From: a virus
IMG/VR virus record: IMGVR_UViG_3300009124_000002
Location: 1 to 64,000 of that record
Reading direction: 5' to 3' (one strand)
Length of the DNA stretch: 64,000 nt
The position numbers were made by a program, and so were the translations under genes. Numbering within the stretch: the stretch's first letter is position 1; each line of letters begins with the position of its first letter. The notes below the pieces were generated by a model. It worked only from the letters and a program-made list of their open reading frames with translations, had not been told where the DNA came from and searched no databases. Of this stretch, positions 6,510 through 46,166 are shown piece after piece.

Positions 6510-7067
6510 TTACTTTAGGTTATTTATGATTCTGAATCCGACACTAATACGATGAGTCCTTGAATACACCGAATGCCAGAACAAATTGTCTTTCTCGTTA
6601 TTTATATGAAAGTGACGTATGTTCCAGCCGGGAAAGTCCATGTCCACAACAGTCTTCTTGGTCTCTTGGTCATAATACTTGAAGTATGAATCTCCATTTT
6701 GAGAATAGTTTAGGTAGCACCTGAGATATGGAGTATCTGCATTAGTGTGCCATCTCATACCTTCTCCCGGTGGATAGTAGAAGAAACCAGAACGAGATAT
6801 TGAGCATTTTGGAAATCGCCCCATCAACATTTTTGTAATGTAGATTTGATCCTTTATTAAATATGATTCCTCGATATCAAATGGTTGCCCTTTTCCAAAG
6901 TTTTGGTCAACATCAACTCCACTTTCCATTGCCAGTGAAAGTGAATCGTCTGAGGTATAGAATCCTTCTTCTTTCTTGGGGTAGTTAATATCAAGGTCTT
7001 TCCATTCATACAAGAGACGATTTGCCATCTCGTCTAGATATTCATCTTCAAATCTCTGATGAATCAT
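6510..7067 (-). CDS. 2OG-Fe(II) oxygenase-like (DSBH) protein
   Basis: YYPPGEGMRWHTN...FWHSV...RISVGF: spacing of the two His and the Arg fits 2OG oxygenases (HxN instead of HxD). Confidence 0.55.
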   Translation of the reverse strand: MIHQRFEDEYLDEMANRLLYEWKDLDINYPKKEEGFYTSDDSLSLAMESGVDVDQNFGKGQPFDIEESYLIKDQIYITKMLMGRFPKCSISRSGFFYYPPGEGMRWHTNADTPYLRCYLNYSQNGDSYFKYYDQETKKTVVDMDFPGWNIRHFHINNEKDNLFWHSVYSRTHRISVGFRIINNLK

Positions 7068-7498
7068 AGAACCTCCTTATACATTGTTAATGCAGGAGGA
7101 TCGACATGACCAATGTCAACAGGAACTTTTACAGAAGTAAAATCTACGGTCTCTGGTAGGTCTCTAAGCTGCTGCTTGTATTTTTCGATATTATGAAGAC
7201 GTTCTTGATTTGTGATATACCTCAAGCAAGCTTTATCGAGTTCCTCCAGTGCCTCATTTCTTCTATACCTAAGAATATCAAGTGCTTCTTTCCGCACCTT
7301 TGATTCATCATATGATATCTCACCGTCCTCAATATTCATAAATTTCAATTCACCGGAGTCTGGGACATCTTTAGGGGAATCAAATGAAATAGCCTTGCCG
7401 CATCTAAGACAGTCCAAGGCTTGTTGAGATGGATTCTTGAGGTAAATTTCCAGTCTTACATCCTCACCAGATTGATATAGCACATAACCATTTTGCAT
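7064..7498 (-). CDS. tail fibre assembly chaperone-like protein
   Basis: C-terminal LR..RN..L..LD...YKQQLRDLP motif typical of phage tail-fibre assembly chaperones. Confidence 0.6.
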   Translation of the reverse strand: MQNGYVLYQSGEDVRLEIYLKNPSQQALDCLRCGKAISFDSPKDVPDSGELKFMNIEDGEISYDESKVRKEALDILRYRRNEALEELDKACLRYITNQERLHNIEKYKQQLRDLPETVDFTSVKVPVDIGHVDPPALTMYKEVL

Positions 7499-11683: not shown

Positions 11684-14600
11684 TCATTCTTCAATAAAGA
11701 TTGAATCTGTCAAAGTTCTATAGTCCAAAGATCTAACTGTAAGTCTTGATGTTTCTTCAGAATCAACGTCGTCTACAATATCTAGTCGTATTGTAGATGT
11801 GTTTCCATTCGTGAGTTGAGTGTTCTGGTAGTGCCATTCTAGTGGATATGAAGTCAGGTCTTGAAGACCATCAATAAACCAAGGGCGATATGTGGGTCCA
11901 TCTGTTGTGGTGATGTCTGCATCTGAGCCTGCTGTATTTTGAATGTAAGATGTCCACCTTACGTTGTGAAGGTTCAGCCCGCTATTTTGTGCTCTAGTTC
12001 CTAGTCTCCAACGGGATTGGTCATAATCAAAACCATCAGAGTGGCTAGGAGCAAGAGTCTTATATCCAGAACCCTTCGTAATCCATCCCCAAGAACCAAT
12101 GCCACCTTTACCAACAGTAGTATTTGTTGACTCATCAAAAGTCTGGACAACTGCCTTGGCAACCTTACCAATATGAAGCAATGTCGCAGTGTTATTTGTA
12201 GCACTCCCTGATGTGTGTGTTGGTGCAGTTGATGCATCAGTTGTTCCTGCAACAGTGACCTCATACAATTCATCTCCACTATAAAGATGGTCACCCACAA
12301 CATATGCAGAATTAGCACTCCATTCCATTCCAACCTTAATCAAATAATGAGGATCTGGTTGAGTCTTATCTGTCACATTGTCTTCCACATCAGCAATTGT
12401 GTGCGTGGTTGTAAATCCTGCTCCTTGGTCAACAATATTGATATCCAAAATGGAGCCATCACTGTTAATCGTTCCCCAACCCCAGACACCTTGCACGGTA
12501 GTATCAATGGGAGTAGCACCAGCTACAGATGGCTCTGCTGTAATTGTTAGTGGAACACCAACAGTTTGAGATGCTGTATTGGCTTGATAGACTTTGAGAT
12601 ATGCAGTAGTGCTTGTCCCTGCTGCATAGTATCCATTATTCAGAATTTCCTGATTATAGTCTTGATATCTTTCTGGGCGAACAATCAAGAATGCATCTCC
12701 CTGAGAATCATTGTAGTTATCAGAGTCATCATACAAAGTGTAATCGGCATCATCAAGATTGTCTTCGTTCTCAAGGTTAATATTGAATTTAAAATTATTA
12801 CCCGCTGAAGTGGCACTATTCAATTGAATGCGTAGACCATCACCGTCTTCGGATGCACGCTCATTGATATTTGCATCATCAGAATCGTTAACACCCTCAA
12901 GGAATTTAAGTGTATGAGGAATGACATCAACATCAGCCCCAAAGACAGAAAATGGTGAACGATTTACACTAAAGTCAAATTCCTTCTCAAGTTCATTGAA
13001 GTCTAGCTTTGCATATGAGCCAATAGATTCACCGGGGTCAAAGAATTTATCTTGTGCTTGATATTGAGTATGGGCAAAGGAATCTCTGGCATCCTCAAGG
13101 AAAGGAGACATGACAAACATGATATCAAGAACGCGAGATTCAATAATTTCTGCTGGCGGGTCACCATAGATTTCACCATCAGAATCATCACCATAAATGT
13201 TTGCTGCATAATCATCTCCGCTAATTCTGTCAATTGCACCAGACCTCCAGCGAAGACCAGCCTGTGCATTGACCAGAGTTTTCACCAAGACATCTACCGG
13301 AGGTTCATACTTGGAAAGAAAGTATGCAGTGAATGGGTCTAGGTCAAGAGCTTGATATGGATTTGCCGTGGAATTCGCTCCAGACCCATATAGAAATCGA
13401 GCGTTCAGGTCAGTGAGATTTGAATTATAGACTCGAAAATCTCGGAGATACCCTGATGTGTGGACAGTTCCCTCATTCCCCTGAGACTCATTAGGAACAT
13501 ACCCTCCCATGATTTGTGACAGATGGAAAGTGTGTTGTCGGGAAACACCATCATCCAAGAAAGACTCAAGGTTGATACTTGTGTCTGTGGCTTCCTTCAC
13601 ACCATCAACCCAGAGGGAACCTGAGCGGTTTCCATCATAGACATACGCCAAGTGGTGCCATTGACCGTCAGCGATTGAGGTGGTTGATGAAAGAATCACT
13701 GGAATACCATCTGATGCATCAGAGTCCCCACCTTCCTGAATGTAAATCACAGCAAACTTCTCATCAATCTTCCCAAGACCAACACCATTTGCATCACGGG
13801 AAGAAACCAGAATACTGTCTGCTGTCTGGCTTGTCTTCAGCCATAATGAAATTGTAAAGGCATCTTCCTCATCAAACTGGTATAGACCAACTCGATTTCC
13901 TTCAGAATCAGTGAAGTAGTCCCAACTGAGATCCCCTTCGTTCGAAGGGTCCAGACCATCCATTCTAAAATCTGTATTGGCATAAATTCTATCATCAACT
14001 CCATCAAACTCAAAAGCTTCCTCTGTGCTATTCCATGTGGGTCCTTCAGATGGGCTGATATAACCATTTCGACCCTCTATCGTGTTCGTAACCTCCTCGA
14101 CTACAAAACCTGATGCGCCCGAAATACTGGATTCCTTATCCAAGGCGTACCTCAAGATGGGTTCTGCAAAAGTCTCTATCTCCTTTCTGCGATTAGGAGG
14201 GAGGAGATCATAATGCCACTTATCATGTTCTGCCCAATAATCTTCATTCTGGGAGTCGCCATCGAACCAGTAATCAGGGTCCCATCCCGGTCTTACCTTG
14301 GACAAATCTCCACCACCAACAACACCAGCCTCAACCAAAGTTGCGACGTTAAATTTAAGACCAGCAGGATGAGCAAGCTTGCGGAATTTACTTCTCCATT
14401 CCTGACCACCAGCAGGAAGTTTTGATGTTCGAATACGATAGGTGTATGGTTTGTCTCCATACTCAATCTGAAGGTCATCTACATCATTGAAGAAGATGCG
14501 AAAGAAAGTATAAACTGATTCAATGGTCCCCTTGGAGCGATAGTAGTGGACAATTCTCTTATACAGAGTTACTCGATCCATGTAGTCTGAATTGGGAACA

Positions 14601-39144: not shown

Positions 39145-40494
39145 TTAGGCGATAATGCCTTTCTGGACTTCTCCATGAACATCAGTCAGACGAAAGTCTC
39201 GACCATTGTAGCGATAAGTGAATTCCTTGAAGTCAAACCCAAGAAGTGTAAGGACTGTGGCATGAAGGTCGTGGACATGGCATGGATTTTCAACTGCCTT
39301 GTATCCAAGTTCATCAGTTGCTCCATATGCAGTCCCACCCTTGACACCACCACCGATCAGGGCAGTGGAGAATCCAGTGTGTTGATGAGCACGACCAAAA
39401 TAACCATTACGACCAGCACCATCACGATGAGGTGTTCTTCCAAATTCACCACCAAGAATGATAAGAGTATCATGGAGCATTCCACGTTGCTTGAGGTCAT
39501 CAATCAATGCAGTCAAGGGACCATCGATACCCTTCGCTCTTACTGTCAATGAAGTAAAGAGATTGTCATGCATATCCCAACCTCCGTTCCATGCCTGTAC
39601 AAAACGAACACCACGTTCAAGAAGTCTCCGGGCGATAAGAAACTGCTTGCCTGTATCTGTGTTTCCATAAGTATCCCTTACTTTCTTTTCTTCCTTACTT
39701 ACATCAAATGCCTCTGTTGCTTCAATTTGCATATTGTATGCAATCTCGTATGACTTGATTCTGTTCTCCAATTCAATATCTTTACCATTCAACTGCGAGT
39801 GCATGGTATTCATCTTAGCAAGGAGATCAAGTTTTCTTCTCTGCTCTTGAAGTGTTCCGCTTGTCTTGATGTTGGCAATCATTTGATTCACATCACGCAA
39901 ACGAGTATCGATTGGAGTTCCCTGATAGAGACCGGGAAGAAAGGCAGACTGCATACTCTCTGTGTATCTCTGAGCACCACCGGGAGCAAGAGAAACAAAA
40001 CCGGGGAGATTATCATTTGCCAAACCAAGACCATAGGATACCCATGAACCAAAGGAAGGGCGAGGTAATGAAATCTGTCCAGTATTGAACATACGAACAC
40101 CAACATCATGGGCAGGAACATCTGTCATCATTGAACGAACTACACAGATATCATCAGCGTGTTTTTGCAATTGAGGAAAGCAAGAAGACATCAAGAGACC
40201 AGACTGACCACAAGGAGTAAACTCAAAATCAGTGGCATGACCAAGACGATTGCCGTTGATCTTTTTGCCATCAAACTTTTCGAGTTCTGGTTTGTAATCC
40301 CACATATCCAGATGTGTTGATGCACCTTGTAGGAAGATGTGTAGAATTCTCTTTGCTTTTCCTTGAGGTGCAACTGCCTGTGCGTTCTCATTGAACATTG
40401 TGCTTGCAGCGATCGCACCAAGACCCATACCTGTTGAACGCAGAAATTCTCTACGGGAGGATGGAAGTGGTTTGATATTAGAGCATGTATTCAT
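39145..40494 (-). CDS. DUF1501-family protein with Tat signal (second subtype)
   Basis: SRREFL; KAKRI.HIFLQGA.THLD.WDYKP...RSM.T....H...RPS.GSW.SYGLG..N.NLPGF...ARRL.ERGVRFVQ...WD.H...GEFGRTP...HDLHAT.L.LLG.D...TYR.NGRD.RLTDV.G. Confidence 0.9.
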   Translation of the reverse strand: MNTCSNIKPLPSSRREFLRSTGMGLGAIAASTMFNENAQAVAPQGKAKRILHIFLQGASTHLDMWDYKPELEKFDGKKINGNRLGHATDFEFTPCGQSGLLMSSCFPQLQKHADDICVVRSMMTDVPAHDVGVRMFNTGQISLPRPSFGSWVSYGLGLANDNLPGFVSLAPGGAQRYTESMQSAFLPGLYQGTPIDTRLRDVNQMIANIKTSGTLQEQRRKLDLLAKMNTMHSQLNGKDIELENRIKSYEIAYNMQIEATEAFDVSKEEKKVRDTYGNTDTGKQFLIARRLLERGVRFVQAWNGGWDMHDNLFTSLTVRAKGIDGPLTALIDDLKQRGMLHDTLIILGGEFGRTPHRDGAGRNGYFGRAHQHTGFSTALIGGGVKGGTAYGATDELGYKAVENPCHVHDLHATVLTLLGFDFKEFTYRYNGRDFRLTDVHGEVQKGIIA

Positions 40495-40495
40495 A

Positions 40496-43120
40496 TTAGT
40501 TAATATACATCGTCTCGTTTGACATCACCATGACATGAATGAATTGTTCAAATGGAGAGTATGTATCTTGTGGGGTTGATTGAATGAACTTGATTGCAAG
40601 CTTGGTTTCCATATCGGTTGGATTCCTTTGCAGGAGCAATTGATAGATTGCTTGTATCTTTCCCGGTTCATCGATTACCTTATCGAATCTGCTTGCGATT
40701 TCTTTTACTTTCACCATCATCATTGAATTATTTAACATGAACAAAGACTGTTGTGGAACGGATGACCGAAATCTCTTTCCTGTTGGGAGGTTTGGATCAG
40801 CCATATCGAAATTGGATAGAATCTCTGGAAGACGACGACGATCAATCTCACCAAAGATAGAACGAGCATTGGGGTATGGTGAATTAAACAGTTTGACTGG
40901 TCCTCCATGTGCCTTTTCAAAATTACCACCATTGGCAAAGAAGAAGAGAGAATCACGAATACCTTCAAACTCAAGGCGTCGAATATTCTGACGGTGCAAG
41001 AAGATGTTACCGGGGTCTTTGAGTTCCATCTTTCCATCTGCCTTACTTGATTGACGATATGTGCGACTTGTGACAATCAGACGATGCAACCTCTTGATGC
41101 TCCAGTTATTCTCCCTCAGATAATTTGAAAGAAATTCTAGTAGTTCTGGATGACTTGGGTCTTCTGCCTGAATCCCAAAGTCATCTGGTGTATCCACAAA
41201 ACCACGACCAAAGTGGTGCATCCAAATTCGATTTACAAAGGAACGTGTGGAGAGTGGATGTTCAATAATTGAATTTGCAAGTTCAAGTCTACCTGAAGTC
41301 TTGTCAGGATACTTTCCTCCATCTGGATCAAGGTATTCAATGAAAGAACGTGGGGCAGAATCACCAAGTTTTCTTGCATTTCCCAAAAGGAAGATACGAG
41401 AAGTCACTGGTCGATTCTCTGTAATCACCATACTACGTGGAGGCGTCACACTGCTTGCCCACTCATGGTCAATGAGTTTGGCGGTAACACGTTGAAGACC
41501 TCTTTGATATTGAGTCCTCTCGCGGTTGTTTAGAATCCTCCAGAAATTCTCAATATCACCAAGGTCACACGGACCTTTATCCTTGAATAGAATCTTATCA
41601 GCCTTCTTTTGAAGAGACGATAATGGCTTCTTATTGATCTTCTTTTCATAAGTTTCGTAGAAGAGTCTACCATACCATGCTGCAACCTGAACAGGAGTCT
41701 CTGCCTTTGCAAGACGAAGACCTCTCAGGATAATCTCATTAACCTTACGAATCTCTTCTTCTGATTTCTTTACTGATTTGCTTACTTTTACTAGTTGGTA
41801 AACTTTCCAGAAATCATCTTTGCTGTTCATTTCACGATTCCAGTTAGACATCATCCTACCAACAAGACCAGTCACCTTATCAACCTTATTAGTTCTGGAA
41901 TACTGCCCCTTGGCTTCATTCGGTACCTCATTGTAATAGTTGTGTGTATGGACGATATACTGAATAGAACCTTTGCGGAAATGGTCATACCATCTTGAAT
42001 ACTCCTTGCGTTTATACACTTGGATATCAGAAGCCAACTTTTTCTTCTTGGTGATATACTCATTAAATCCATTTGAACCAGTTGTGTCTTCTGTCATTGG
42101 AAGCTCAAATTCATTCGGTTCACGCACTGAACGAAAGATTCCATGTAGTGCATAGTAATCCTTCTGACTGATTGGATCGAACTTATGATCATGACACCTC
42201 GCACAAGTAACAGTCAATGAAAGGAATCCCTTGGTGATGACATCGATGCGATCATCAATCACATCATTTGCATTATTGTCACGACGACCAATAGTGATGA
42301 ACCCAAGCCCTCCTGTATCTGGTTTTGGAAGAAGGTCACCAGCAATCTGTTCCTGAATGAATCGATTGTAAGGCTTGTCTTCATGAAAGGAATCAATCAC
42401 ATAATCACGATATGACCATGCATAAACATAACGAGGATCATCACGACGATTATTGGCACCACCCTTGTAATCACTATAGCGAGCAACATCCAGCCAGTGT
42501 CTTGCCCATCTCTCTGCATATGCTCTGGATGAGAGAATCTCGTCTACGATTTTGTAATAGTTCTTTCCACCATTTTCAAATTCAGAAACCTGAAGTGGAG
42601 TAGGTGGTAATCCAGTCATATCAAAGTAGAGACGACGAATCAACTCTCTCTTTGTTGCTTCAGGCGAAAAGAGCGCACCTTGTTTCTTGAGACCATCGGC
42701 AATGAAGTTGTCAATAGGATTCTCCTGTTTGAAATCTGGAACTGTTGGAGTATATGCCTTCTTGAATGCCCAATGTGATTCCACCTCTTTACCCCAACGG
42801 GAACCTGATGCAGTGAAATTGGTGGGAAGCTTGGCACCATTCTTGATCCATGAAGCAAGGATGTTTCGATTTACTTCTCCAAGGTCTCTCTTTGGTGGCA
42901 TATCACCAGAGACAATGGCATTAAGCAGGACGTTGTCTTTGAGTGCTTTCTGAATGCCTTCCTTGGAGTCCAGTAATGTATCACCTTTGACTCTCTTTGC
43001 CTTGGATGAATGACACTCATAGCAGTTATTTGCGATAAGTGGACGAATTGCATTCTCAAAATCATCTGCACCAAAGACGAAACAAGCGGACAAGAATAGT
43101 ATTGATAATACAAGTTTCAT
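40496..43120 (-). CDS. planctomycete cytochrome c (PSCyt1) + DUF1549 + DUF1553 (PSD1) domain protein, two CxxCH haem motifs
   Basis: Signal peptide; IRP....CYECH...MPP; HWAF...NPID.FI...RRLY.D.TGLPP...ERWARHWLDVARY.D; CARCHDHKFDPI.Q.DYY.L; SGRLELA...R..VNRIW.HHFG.G.V.TPDDFG...PSHPELL...WS.K.LHRLIV.S.TYRQSS. Confidence 0.92.
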   Translation of the reverse strand: MKLVLSILFLSACFVFGADDFENAIRPLIANNCYECHSSKAKRVKGDTLLDSKEGIQKALKDNVLLNAIVSGDMPPKRDLGEVNRNILASWIKNGAKLPTNFTASGSRWGKEVESHWAFKKAYTPTVPDFKQENPIDNFIADGLKKQGALFSPEATKRELIRRLYFDMTGLPPTPLQVSEFENGGKNYYKIVDEILSSRAYAERWARHWLDVARYSDYKGGANNRRDDPRYVYAWSYRDYVIDSFHEDKPYNRFIQEQIAGDLLPKPDTGGLGFITIGRRDNNANDVIDDRIDVITKGFLSLTVTCARCHDHKFDPISQKDYYALHGIFRSVREPNEFELPMTEDTTGSNGFNEYITKKKKLASDIQVYKRKEYSRWYDHFRKGSIQYIVHTHNYYNEVPNEAKGQYSRTNKVDKVTGLVGRMMSNWNREMNSKDDFWKVYQLVKVSKSVKKSEEEIRKVNEIILRGLRLAKAETPVQVAAWYGRLFYETYEKKINKKPLSSLQKKADKILFKDKGPCDLGDIENFWRILNNRERTQYQRGLQRVTAKLIDHEWASSVTPPRSMVITENRPVTSRIFLLGNARKLGDSAPRSFIEYLDPDGGKYPDKTSGRLELANSIIEHPLSTRSFVNRIWMHHFGRGFVDTPDDFGIQAEDPSHPELLEFLSNYLRENNWSIKRLHRLIVTSRTYRQSSKADGKMELKDPGNIFLHRQNIRRLEFEGIRDSLFFFANGGNFEKAHGGPVKLFNSPYPNARSIFGEIDRRRLPEILSNFDMADPNLPTGKRFRSSVPQQSLFMLNNSMMMVKVKEIASRFDKVIDEPGKIQAIYQLLLQRNPTDMETKLAIKFIQSTPQDTYSPFEQFIHVMVMSNETMYIN

Positions 43121-44042: not shown

Positions 44043-44143
44043 TAAGATGAACAACCGGAGCCAAGAGGACAAACATAAACCGAAGAACCAACGTTCTTCA
44101 ACTCTTTGCCACAGCGATCACATTTTCGTTTTTGTTTTTTCAT
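44042..44143 (-). CDS. tiny Cys-rich zinc-finger-like peptide (MKKQKRKCDRCGKELKNVGSSVYVCPLGSGCSS)
   Basis: ATG 3 nt after the tmRNA CCA; TAATG coupling to the ExbB-like gene; four Cys. Confidence 0.45.
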   Translation of the reverse strand: MKKQKRKCDRCGKELKNVGSSVYVCPLGSGCSS

Positions 44144-44146
44144 AAA

Positions 44147-44563
44147 TGGTGGAGGCGGCGGGAGTCGAACCCGCGTCCAATACTACCTAGTATGCTCTTC
44201 TACACGTTTAGCTCGACTCTCTATACTCCTGATGCATCATCGAGCATCCTCATCAGGAGGTTGAACCAAGTGTCTTAGGTGATGGTGTCTGGTTCCATCC
44301 AGTCATCACAGCAGCCTCTGCTTTAGTAACCGCGAACTCAACGAGGCATTAAGTCCACGATCTGGTTATGCAACCACTTCAGCGACTTCGGCTCCAGCCA
44401 GAACAGCATCAGCATTGTTCATGATGGCAGCAGCTTCGTCAAGAAGACCGGCAATGTTATCTTCGCCATTTAGTTTTTTTAGTCGATTTTTAATGAGACC
44501 ATTCGACCAACTCATACGTGCTTCTTCATTCATCAGCAATACTGTCGAAACCAGTACGCCCCC
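44147..44563 (-). ncRNA. ssrA: tmRNA
   Basis: 5' GGGGGCGTACTGGTTTCGACAG and 3' GGACGCGGGTTCGACTCCCGCCGCCTCCACCA form an Ala-type acceptor stem with G3.U; internal tag ORF at 44467-44366. Confidence 0.92.
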
Positions 44564-44568
44564 GAAAT

Positions 44569-44658
44569 TGGCGGTGAGAGAGGGATTTGAACCCCCGGTT
44601 GCTTTTACACAACTCCTGTTTTCAAGACAGGTGCATTAAACCGCTCTGCCATCTCACC
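44569..44658 (-). tRNA. tRNA-Ser(TGA)
   Basis: Cloverleaf with long variable arm, loop CTTGAAA, GCCA end. Confidence 0.92.
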
Positions 44659-44662
44659 AAAG

Positions 44663-44739
44663 TGGTCGGAAAGACAGGATTTGAACCTGCGACATCCTGC
44701 TCCCAAAGCAGGTGCTCTACCAAACTGAGCTACTCTCCG
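44663..44739 (-). tRNA. tRNA-Pro(TGG)
   Basis: CGGAGAG..., loop TTTGGGA, ACCA end. Confidence 0.92.
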
Positions 44740-44743
44740 AAAA

Positions 44744-44818
44744 TGGCATCCCGTACCAGAATCGAACTGGTGTTCTCGCCGTGAAAGGGCGATGTCCTAA
44801 CCGCTAGACGAACGGGAC
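44744..44818 (-). tRNA. tRNA-Glu(TTC)
   Basis: GTCCCGTTCGTCTAGCGGTTAGGAC..., loop CTTTCAC, GCCA end. Confidence 0.92.
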
Positions 44819-44829
44819 TTAATGTTAAA

Positions 44830-44919
44830 TGGCGGCTGGAAAGAGATTCGAACTCTTGGTACCCTTTCGAGTACGACAGTTTAGCAAACTGTTGCTTTAG
44901 ACCACTCAGCCATCCAACC
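44830..44919 (-). tRNA. tRNA-Ser(GCT)
   Basis: Long variable arm, loop TTGCTAA, GCCA end. Confidence 0.92.
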
Positions 44920-44925
44920 TGAAAT

Positions 44926-45002
44926 TGGTTGGCGCAGTAGGATTTGAACCTACGACCTTTCGATTATCAATCGAATGCTCTAACCAACTGAGCTATGCGC
45001 CA
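44926..45002 (-). tRNA. tRNA-Ile(GAT)
   Basis: Loop TTGATAA, ACCA end. Confidence 0.92.
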
Positions 45003-45009
45003 ATGAAAA

Positions 45010-45085
45010 TGGAGCCAGATGTCAGATTCGAACTGACGACCGACGGTTTACAAAACCGTTGCTCTACCAACTGAGCTAATCTGGC
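45010..45085 (-). tRNA. tRNA-Thr(TGT)
   Basis: GCCAGAT..., loop TTTGTAA, TCCA end. Confidence 0.92.
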
Positions 45086-45087
45086 AT

Positions 45088-45164
45088 TGGTGGACCCTAT
45101 AGGGGTTGAACCTATGACCTACCGATTATGAGTCGGGTGCTCTGACCAACTGAGCTAAGGGTCC
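45088..45164 (-). tRNA. tRNA with CAT anticodon, most likely Ile2 (lysidine-type)
   Basis: GGACCCTTAGCTCAG...CCGA-CTCATAA-TCGG resembles bacterial tRNA-Ile2; isotype is inferred. Confidence 0.8.
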
Positions 45165-45173
45165 ATTAGAAAT

Positions 45174-45249
45174 TGGTGCCCCCACTAGGACTCGAACCTA
45201 GAACCACCTGATTAAAAGTCAGATACTCTACCAATTGAGCTATAAGGGC
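45174..45249 (-). tRNA. tRNA-Lys(TTT)
   Basis: Loop CTTTTAA, ACCA end. Confidence 0.92.
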
Positions 45250-45254
45250 GGAAG

Positions 45255-45330
45255 TGGTAGCAGGAGTGGGATTTGAACCCACGGTCTTCTGGATATGAGC
45301 CAGACGAGATAACCACTTCTCCATCCTGCA
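45255..45330 (-). tRNA. tRNA-Met(CAT), initiator-like
   Basis: T1/T72 mismatch, GGAG/CTC D-stem (purine11-pyrimidine24), loop CTCATAT, ACCA end. Confidence 0.8.
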
Positions 45331-45335
45331 TTAAA

Positions 45336-45407
45336 ATTGAGGGCGGGACTCGAACCCGCAACCTCTTCCGTGACAGGGAAGTACTCTACACTTTGAGTTA
45401 CGTCACT
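45336..45407 (-). pseudogene. degenerate tRNA-Asp(GTC)
   Basis: Intact D, anticodon (CTTCC-CTGTCAC-GGAAG) and T arms, but acceptor AGTGACG/CCTCAAT has two mismatches and no encoded CCA. Confidence 0.7.
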
Positions 45408-45413
45408 AGAAAT

Positions 45414-45861
45414 TGGAGCTGGGTTAACCTATATTGTTTAACGTCGCACCCAGCTAGGTTCGACGAGCATGATGCGTCTTCTTTTCGGCAGACGTCTCCA
45501 CCTACACATAGGACACATTGGTGCACCGCTTGCCGAGCAGTATGACTCTTTCGAGTTTCATCCTTTAGGAATCATCAGATACGCTGTGGCAAAGAAAGTC
45601 GATCCATTTACAACCCCCGTTATTGTTTTGGTTGAAGGTGGACCAGACCTGATCGTTGGGTTATCGTGTAACGCCAACAAAGATTCGGCTTTTTATTTTG
45701 CCCTGTTGACATGGGGTCTCCTCTCTCTAGGGACTTACTGCTGAGCCGTAACAGCTTAAAGTTGGATATCATCACCATTGCCCTTTTGGGTCACCCACGG
45801 ATTCTCGGTGGTCTTCAATACCTTATCGGAGTATCTCCCGGAGAGTAGAACCTCTCTCAAT
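45414..45861 (-). ncRNA. structured non-coding leader RNA(s) of the tRNA operon, ending in TCCA
   Basis: No credible ORF between promoter and first tRNA; many hairpins and pseudoknots; includes a hammerhead. Confidence 0.65.
45530..45592 (-). ncRNA. type I hammerhead ribozyme (predicted cleavage between 45544 and 45543)
   Basis: TTGCCACAGCGTAT-CTGATGA-T-TCC-TAAA-GGA-T-GAAA-CTC-GAAA-GAG-TC-ATACTGCTCGGCAA: full core, three stems, GUC site. Confidence 0.8.
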
Positions 45862-45867
45862 TTTTAT

Positions 45868-45896
45868 ATTCTACATGAAGCCTTTGCTTCAGTCAA
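45868..45896 (-). promoter_or_regulatory. strong sigma70-type promoter TTGACT-17-TAGAAT for the ncRNA/tRNA/tmRNA operon
   Basis: Near-consensus hexamers; the spacer contains the inverted repeat TGAAGC-4-GCTTCA. Confidence 0.78.
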
Positions 45897-45902
45897 CTAT
45901 TC

Positions 45903-46166
45903 TTATTCTCCAAACACTAAAATTTCATCAGTGAAAAGCATCAAGAAGTCATGTAGGTCTCTATATTGTTCTCCTGCATAAACATACTCTTCAATCTTCT
46001 CCTGAAAGCCCAACTCATCATCAAAGACCTTTTTCAAATCATCACGGTCATGTAGTTTCTGCCAGAGTCGATTCATGATTACTGCACGACCATTATTGTC
46101 ATGGATTGGAAGGTCTTCCTTCGTGCGTTCAACCCATCTCTCATTGTGGTTGCTAATGTAAATCAT
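45903..46166 (-). CDS. hypothetical protein
   Basis: Co-oriented ORF, plausible composition. Confidence 0.6.
   Translation of the reverse strand: MIYISNHNERWVERTKEDLPIHDNNGRAVIMNRLWQKLHDRDDLKKVFDDELGFQEKIEEYVYAGEQYRDLHDFLMLFTDEILVFGE

Follow-up and report, generated by a model that had tools for sequence, protein, structure and literature searches.

Does a phage that carries its own tRNA and tmRNA genes also carry a ribozyme that cuts the transcript on which they lie, and what would such a cut be for? The question is raised by the IMG/VR virus record IMGVR_UViG_3300009124_000002, for which an original prediction, made from the letters alone, had placed a hammerhead ribozyme in the leader of a tRNA/tmRNA operon. 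The window, that is the whole stretch of DNA analysed here (64,000 nt), is the first 64 kb of this 119-kb record, which is rated 66% complete. The features of the locus are as follows, in the order in which they would be transcribed.

45896..45868, minus strand: promoter-like site TTGACT-17-TAGAAT (sigma-70-like; consensus scan, 10/12 matches)
45841..45685, minus strand: conserved 5' domain of the leader RNA (alignment with the related phage L059)
45684..45541, minus strand: 144-nt lineage-specific insert, comprising two hairpins and the hammerhead body (alignment with L059)
45592..45579, minus strand: hammerhead stem I, 5' strand, UUGCCACAGCGUAU (direct reading, fold)
45578..45572, minus strand: core C3-A9, CUGAUGA (direct reading, descriptor, model R1 alignment)
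45571..45560, minus strand: stem II hairpin UUCC-UAAA-GGAU, with U.U, then U-A, C-G and C-G, and loop UAAA
45559..45557, minus strand: core G12 A13 A14 (GAA; direct reading, model R1 alignment)
45556..45545, minus strand: stem III hairpin ACUC-GAAA-GAGU, with A15.1-U16.1 and three further pairs
45544/45543, minus strand: C17 and the predicted cleavage site, with A1.1 at 45543 (placed by hammerhead numbering)
45543..45530, minus strand: stem I, 3' strand, AUACUGCUCGGCAA, which from 45540 doubles as the start of the conserved 3' domain
45540..45414, minus strand: conserved 3' domain of the leader RNA (alignment with L059, strain contigs)
45407..44569, minus strand: 10 tRNA genes, on the same strand as the ribozyme (ARAGORN/Rfam)
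44563..44147, minus strand: tmRNA gene (Rfam, 120.6 bits; ARAGORN)
44104..44077, minus strand: terminator-like hairpin past the tmRNA (consensus scan only)

Direct reading of the sequence bore out a type I hammerhead at 45592..45530 on the minus strand, which is the transcribed one, with every part that had been listed found in its place, including the claimed stem I pairing (GUAU/AUAC, AGC/GCU and UUGCC/GGCAA), which is interrupted by a bulged U and by an internal loop of AC opposite C. All 13 invariant positions of the hammerhead core are present (C3 U4 G5 A6 N7 G8 A9 and G12 A13 A14 included), A 45556 pairs with U 45545, and H17 is a C at 45544, which completes a GUC triplet. The three helices have the type I topology, stems II and III being closed by loops and stem I being open. 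The G10.1-C11.1 pair that would close stem II is absent and its place is taken by U.U (45571, 45560). Thermodynamic folding (ViennaRNA) returned the three-way junction as the minimum-free-energy structure of both the 71-nt element and its 261-nt context; in the 434-nt fold of the whole leader, stems II and III were retained and stem I was re-paired. Fold z-scores of the element were unremarkable, as is usual for small ribozymes. The bulged U and the AC/C internal loop of stem I lie 4 and 7 pairs from the core, loop II is UAAA, and no convincing pairing for a loop II-stem I tertiary contact was identified in the sequence. Natural hammerheads need such a contact for activity at cellular Mg2+.

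To gauge chance, we searched with a permissive type I descriptor, which asked for CUGANGA, a stem II of three or more pairs (closing mismatch allowed), GAAA, a stem III of three or more pairs starting with A-U, a base other than G, and four or more pairs in stem I. Across both strands of the 119-kb genome it matched one site, the hammerhead at 45592..45530. At least one match occurred in 52 of 1000 dinucleotide-preserving shuffles of the genome, and in 1 of the 1000 the match also equalled the real stem I in duplex stability (-11.3 kcal/mol). These figures are good but not overwhelming, a rate of about 1/1000 per genome being not negligible over many windows; the odds are lower still because the site lies in a non-coding stretch of about 500 nt and in sense orientation within an RNA operon. 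In 596 Gb of prokaryotic genomes a hammerhead pattern with the U.U closure matched 9 times, and since none of the nine had three stems, chance matches look unlike the element in the window.

A search with hammerhead models, which had been proposed as a check, went against the prediction insofar as Rfam reports no hammerhead at this locus. There was no ribozyme match in the whole window at the gathering cut-off, or in the slice 45300..46000 (701 nt) at E up to 10. On the whole genome, Hammerhead_1 (RF00163) gave no match at E up to 10 and Hammerhead_3 (RF00008) reached only 12.5 bits (E 0.93; cut-off 48.5). A weak RF00008 match at genome 71043..71090 was rejected as a candidate, CUGAUGA being absent there. 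The element resembles RF00163 and RF00008 in core consensus and secondary structure, with scores below reporting. The miss says little, because at gathering cut-offs the same library also overlooked the pattern-defined type I hammerheads of 17 out of 17 IMG/VR loci, a set made up of the window's twin and 16 others, in many of which the core is fully canonical.

More informative comparators were gathered from IMG/VR with a pattern that combined the core with a stem III of the form C-NN-GAAA-NN-G and left stem II free. This retrieved 41 loci. In 38 of these, complementary bases occupy both free pairs of stem III; the three exceptions (L028, L037 and L049) look like chance matches. With these, the window's twin contig (L013) and exact duplicates removed, 27 distinct elements remained, and leaving out a further four whose stem II was out of register in the MAFFT alignment (L017, L025, L045 and L048) gave 23 comparators. 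Over the 11 pairs of their three helices, 94.5% of cells are standard pairs and 77 cells have changed on both sides; 0/500 shuffles reached either figure, and slid controls dropped to 19-40% paired. The 23 comparators are real ribozymes. Strong covariation is seen only across these non-orthologous phage hammerheads.

Hammerhead identity is also backed by a model built from these other phage hammerheads. Model R1, a covariance model of the 23 comparators from which the window and its twin were excluded, was run over the window with filters off and found 45586..45536 at 45.8 bits (E 4.6e-13), a score in which the fixed positions agree by construction, the training set having been fetched with a pattern taken from the same motif; stems I and II did not belong to that pattern. 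The runner-up in the window reached 18.9 bits, within a coding region and with its pairs broken.

The comparators also bear on the one departure from the canonical form. At 10.1/11.1 they have G-C in 13 cases, G-U in one and a non-pair in nine (A.A six, U.U three), and the arrangement of the window, U.U followed by U-A, recurs exactly in L024 and L052 (parallel forms, UUGCC..GGCAU). Natural hammerheads with a U10.1-U11.1 mismatch opening stem II have been described, U-U being the most active mispair at this position (Perreault et al. 2011, PMC3088659). The missing G10.1-C11.1 is known natural variation and hence not disqualifying for membership of hammerhead type I, and identification of the element as a U10.1.U11.1 variant of that type was upheld on every testable feature of sequence and structure. 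As a separate observation, A.A at 10.1/11.1 is followed by a G-C pair in 6 of the 23 (L010, L027, L029, L040, L041 and L051); on these positions, the part of the Perreault paper covered here mentions only the U.U case (PMC3088659). A further group (L024, L029, L031, L040, L043, L046 and L052) has a common stem I 3' side, GGAG...CCCAAG.CGGGGAAUAACU, whose conservation suggests that a larger conserved structure surrounds the ribozyme in this L024-type family.

How far the ribozyme is shared among relatives of the locus was followed through its copies and its leader. Conservation of the core in homologs, on which the original prediction had leaned, held in one respect and failed in another: all eight copies of the element (window, L013, L066, L068, L069, L070, L071 and L072) are identical over 63 nt, but the diverged leader homolog, in the related phage L059, is without the whole ribozyme insert. 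The eight copies all come from near-identical strains, among which the surrounding leader of about 470 nt has about six polymorphic sites; zero changes in 63 nt are expected anyway, so that the identity neither supports nor weakens the structure. Blastn of 45400..45900 against named phage genomes gave no match, and the upstream 87-aa protein as query found only the twin contig. The ClpP query reached 12 loci, and the leader was covered in L013 and L059 alone; the peptidase found 2 loci, a 24-mer of the leader 2 in IMG/VR, and a 20-mer of the leader 8 metagenome loci, all of the same species. The leader was found in only two diverged lineages.

The single diverged relative (L059 = L064 = L083; ClpP 71% and peptidase 82% identical) has an array of 13 tRNAs, likewise starting with tRNA-Asp, and no ribozyme. 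Its leader (6828..7208) is clearly homologous to that of the window, with long identical blocks in both the 5' and the 3' domain, and carries its own insert of about 85 nt elsewhere. Another relative, L082 (peptidase 100% identical), has three tRNAs and a tmRNA with no leader at all. Because L059 is without the ribozyme insert and L082 without the leader, the ribozyme is accessory and dispensable for the operon; it belongs to one lineage and is not conserved with the array. These results directly support the motif and its fold, its resemblance to the family, its strand and position, and its status as part of an insert.

The alignment with L059 also defines where the insert entered. At the corresponding site L059 has 10 nt, UUAUUUCUAU, in the loop of a hairpin GCCGA/UCGGC, and the GCCGA and UCGGC strands flank the 144-nt insert in the window. 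Since the UCGGC strand shares bases with the distal part of stem I (GGCAA), hammerhead stem I and the conserved hairpin compete. The conserved 3' domain begins 3 nt past the predicted cleavage site, and its end (45454..45414) consists of a 7-bp stem (GCUGGGU/ACCCAGC), an almost invariant 23-nt loop, a variable base (U, G or A among strains) and CCA, which lies 6 nt before the first tRNA. In shape this putative leader 3' end is like the acceptor end of a tRNA. A further ...GGUGCACCA string occurs at 45527..45519. The leader RNA, whether from the window phage or from L059, matched no Rfam family at E up to 10 (Infernal), and single-sequence folds of it were no better than those of shuffles (z -0.6 to -1.4).

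Further candidate features of the leader were considered and dropped. Strings resembling AAGUCC and ...CACCA had prompted the idea of an RNase P RNA or a permuted tmRNA, for which Infernal returned nothing at E up to 10 and ARAGORN no second tmRNA. A 26-codon ORF past the first CCA loses its frame in L059 through a 1-nt indel, and a change that had looked compensatory, at the foot of the terminal hairpin, was discounted because the position varies between U, G and A among strains.

The boundaries of the transcript were approached by consensus scanning and from public RNA data. The promoter-like site, which is kept in near-identical strain contigs, predicts a transcript start near 45861. An upstream RNA of about 320 nt had been proposed as one product of cleavage; a site from which it could start does exist at 45896..45868, but as a consensus match only. 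Between the ribozyme and the tRNA/tmRNA genes the consensus scan found no terminator-like site except a tRNA T-arm, and the only other minus-strand site in the scanned region, apart from the hairpin past the tmRNA, lies within the tmRNA gene. In four salt-marsh metatranscriptome runs, RNA contigs with exact matches cover the tmRNA at a depth of 59-74, and each run has a single contig over parts of 45589..45880, with a depth of 2-3.4; 45409..45588 has no contig in these runs, at the low depth seen nearby (2-3.4). The leader contigs stop at 45589, 45705, 45710 and 45731; at the other end, two extend as far as 45879/45880 and so begin before the predicted start. These metatranscriptomes are kept as contigs, in which RNA ends are not visible, and such libraries can hold DNA; at a depth of 2-3.4 the leader contigs say nothing on cleavage or promoter.

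Several further observations concern the operon and its surroundings. The first tRNA of the window (45335..45407) is a tRNA-Asp with two acceptor-stem mismatches, and L013, L070 and L072 have another tRNA instead; tRNA content varies among the near-identical strains, with L013 holding a tRNA-Asn that is absent from the window. The phage tmRNA (44147..44563) has a long predicted tag of 33 residues. Neighbouring genes on the minus strand encode PhoH, a ClpP-like protease, an S26-type signal peptidase, a MotA/ExbB fragment and a DUF1501 plus PSCyt2/PSD1 pair. In this pair (39145..43120 of the window, minus strand), the DUF1501 gene lies beside a PSCyt2/PSD1 (DUF1549/DUF1553) gene, an association that we take to be typical of Planctomycetes and thus a hint at the phage host; L059 keeps a 449-aa ORF at the matching position.

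What would a hammerhead do at this position? We regard the element as probably a genuine type I hammerhead, of the sort that is common in phages, carried on a lineage-specific insert, that cuts after C17 as punctuation at the boundary of a stable-RNA module. The ribozyme would fold locally during transcription and cut after C17 (45544). The upstream piece, comprising the 5' domain, the insert hairpins and the ribozyme body, would end in a 2',3'-cyclic phosphate, and the downstream piece would begin with a 5'-OH at 45543, 3 bases before the 3' domain of the leader, and run on into the tRNAs and the tmRNA. The ribozyme would thus provide punctuation, independent of host RNases, at a module boundary of the stable-RNA transcript; in the related phage L059, the same boundary is a short AU-rich loop. 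Its place at a module boundary of the tRNA/tmRNA leader fits such a putative role, and self-cleavage that processes the RNA operon, as had been proposed, is plausible. Cleavage, co-transcription with the array and a role or benefit to the phage are what we infer from the sequence.

An active ribozyme might also serve the leader RNA itself and not the maturation of tRNAs, which we consider unlikely. A conserved structured RNA of about 285 nt, formed by the 5' and 3' domains, would then be split into two still-paired pieces, or the upstream RNA would be given a defined 3' end whilst RNase P freed the tRNAs anyway. The hairpin that takes up the insert in its terminal loop (GCCGA/UCGGC) is, as such a role would have it, conserved in L059, and both leader domains are conserved across phages with ClpP 71% identical; the tRNAs lie 130 nt further downstream with processing signals of their own, and L082 has its tRNAs and tmRNA without any leader. 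However, the leader matches no known family, it folds no better than shuffles (z -0.6 to -1.4), and only two diverged lineages represent it.

Alternatively, the element may have the shape of a hammerhead and not cleave, either as a decayed relic on the 144-nt insertion or as a chance three-way junction, which a short stem II opening with U.U at 10.1/11.1 would make inert at cellular Mg2+. The absence of G10.1-C11.1 from the element, and that of the whole motif from the related L059 leader, would be in keeping with this, as would the lack of covariation among the copies, of an Rfam match and of an identified tertiary contact, and some relaxed match does occur in about 5% of shuffled genomes. 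Nevertheless, an equally stable stem I arose in only 1 of 1000 shuffles and all other invariant positions are intact. U.U or A.A closures are found in 9 of the 23 phage hammerheads, which clearly covary, natural U.U variants have been published, and wherever the U.U pattern matched prokaryotic genomes (9 times in 596 Gb), the three stems were missing. We hold a non-cleaving element to be quite improbable.

The reading as punctuation of a stable-RNA module can be set against the surroundings of the other phage hammerheads. ARAGORN found no tRNA in 21 of the 27 distinct comparator loci. In 5 of the 6 loci with tRNAs, no more than 1 kb separates the hammerhead from a tRNA of the same strand (Poisson-binomial p 2.8e-4 under random placement within each locus), and no opposite-strand tRNAs were found by ARAGORN in the comparator loci. 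Several other comparator hammerheads precede tRNA look-alikes that bear a T-arm. By this count, some phage hammerheads reside in tRNA loci. Two of the look-alikes belong to another phage family: after the L010 hammerhead (12290..12400) there is a long one, with a normal T-arm and acceptor stem and about 36 extra bases in the middle, and in L027 (minus strand) one lies about 200 nt downstream of the hammerhead, where Rfam calls a 105-nt tRNA. The L010 family, L027, L036, L050, L024 and L043 resemble the window in lying in tRNA clusters, in being of type I with stem III C-NN-GAAA-NN-G, in sharing the strand of the tRNAs or T-arm look-alikes and often in a non-Watson-Crick 10.1/11.1; they differ from it in that their flanks are unrelated and none has the window's leader RNA.

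Two known systems lie close to this arrangement. Among the phage and prophage type I hammerheads described by Perreault et al. (2011, PMC3088659), as far as the portion of the paper considered here goes, the invariant core, three-helix junction, GUC triplet and short stem II are as in the window, and so are the phage setting, the intergenic position and the proposed cutting of transcripts; hammerheads flanking prophage genes were proposed there to cut long transcripts into units. Unlike the window element, the ribozymes in that portion flank protein genes near integrases, and no case is placed in a tRNA/tmRNA leader. Theta ribozymes, which are minimal HDV-like ribozymes beside phage tRNAs (Kienbeck et al. 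2024, PMC10879173), are likewise small self-cleavers in phage tRNA loci and, in the sections drawn on here, are likewise proposed to process tRNA transcripts, but they belong to another fold class with another cleavage geometry; a term search of that paper did not find the word 'hammerhead'. A full-text literature search returned no hammerhead placed in a phage tRNA array, although the supplementary datasets of PMC3088659 may include such cases. The ribozyme is of a known kind, and its setting ahead of tRNA and tmRNA genes is little-described.

Taken alone, the element in the window is one more phage hammerhead. Beyond this locus, it is conceivable, if doubtful, that hammerheads are recurrent, host-RNase-independent punctuation for phage stable-RNA islands, acquired here through the 144-nt insert. 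We would be equally hesitant to suppose that the cut yields a two-piece RNA, or a 5'-OH RNA mimicking a tRNA ahead of the tRNA train, and a phage of the L059 type making the same cut with a host nuclease at its AU-rich loop likewise seems rather unlikely. To our knowledge, the role of bacterial and phage hammerheads is still largely unknown. With the present locus, the self-cleaving ribozymes of phage tRNA loci come to include hammerheads beside the HDV-like theta ribozymes. The locus also offers a natural comparison, with one sister phage that has the leader but no ribozyme and another without the leader, and this comparison allows a test of whether hammerheads take the place of host RNases in the production of stable RNAs.
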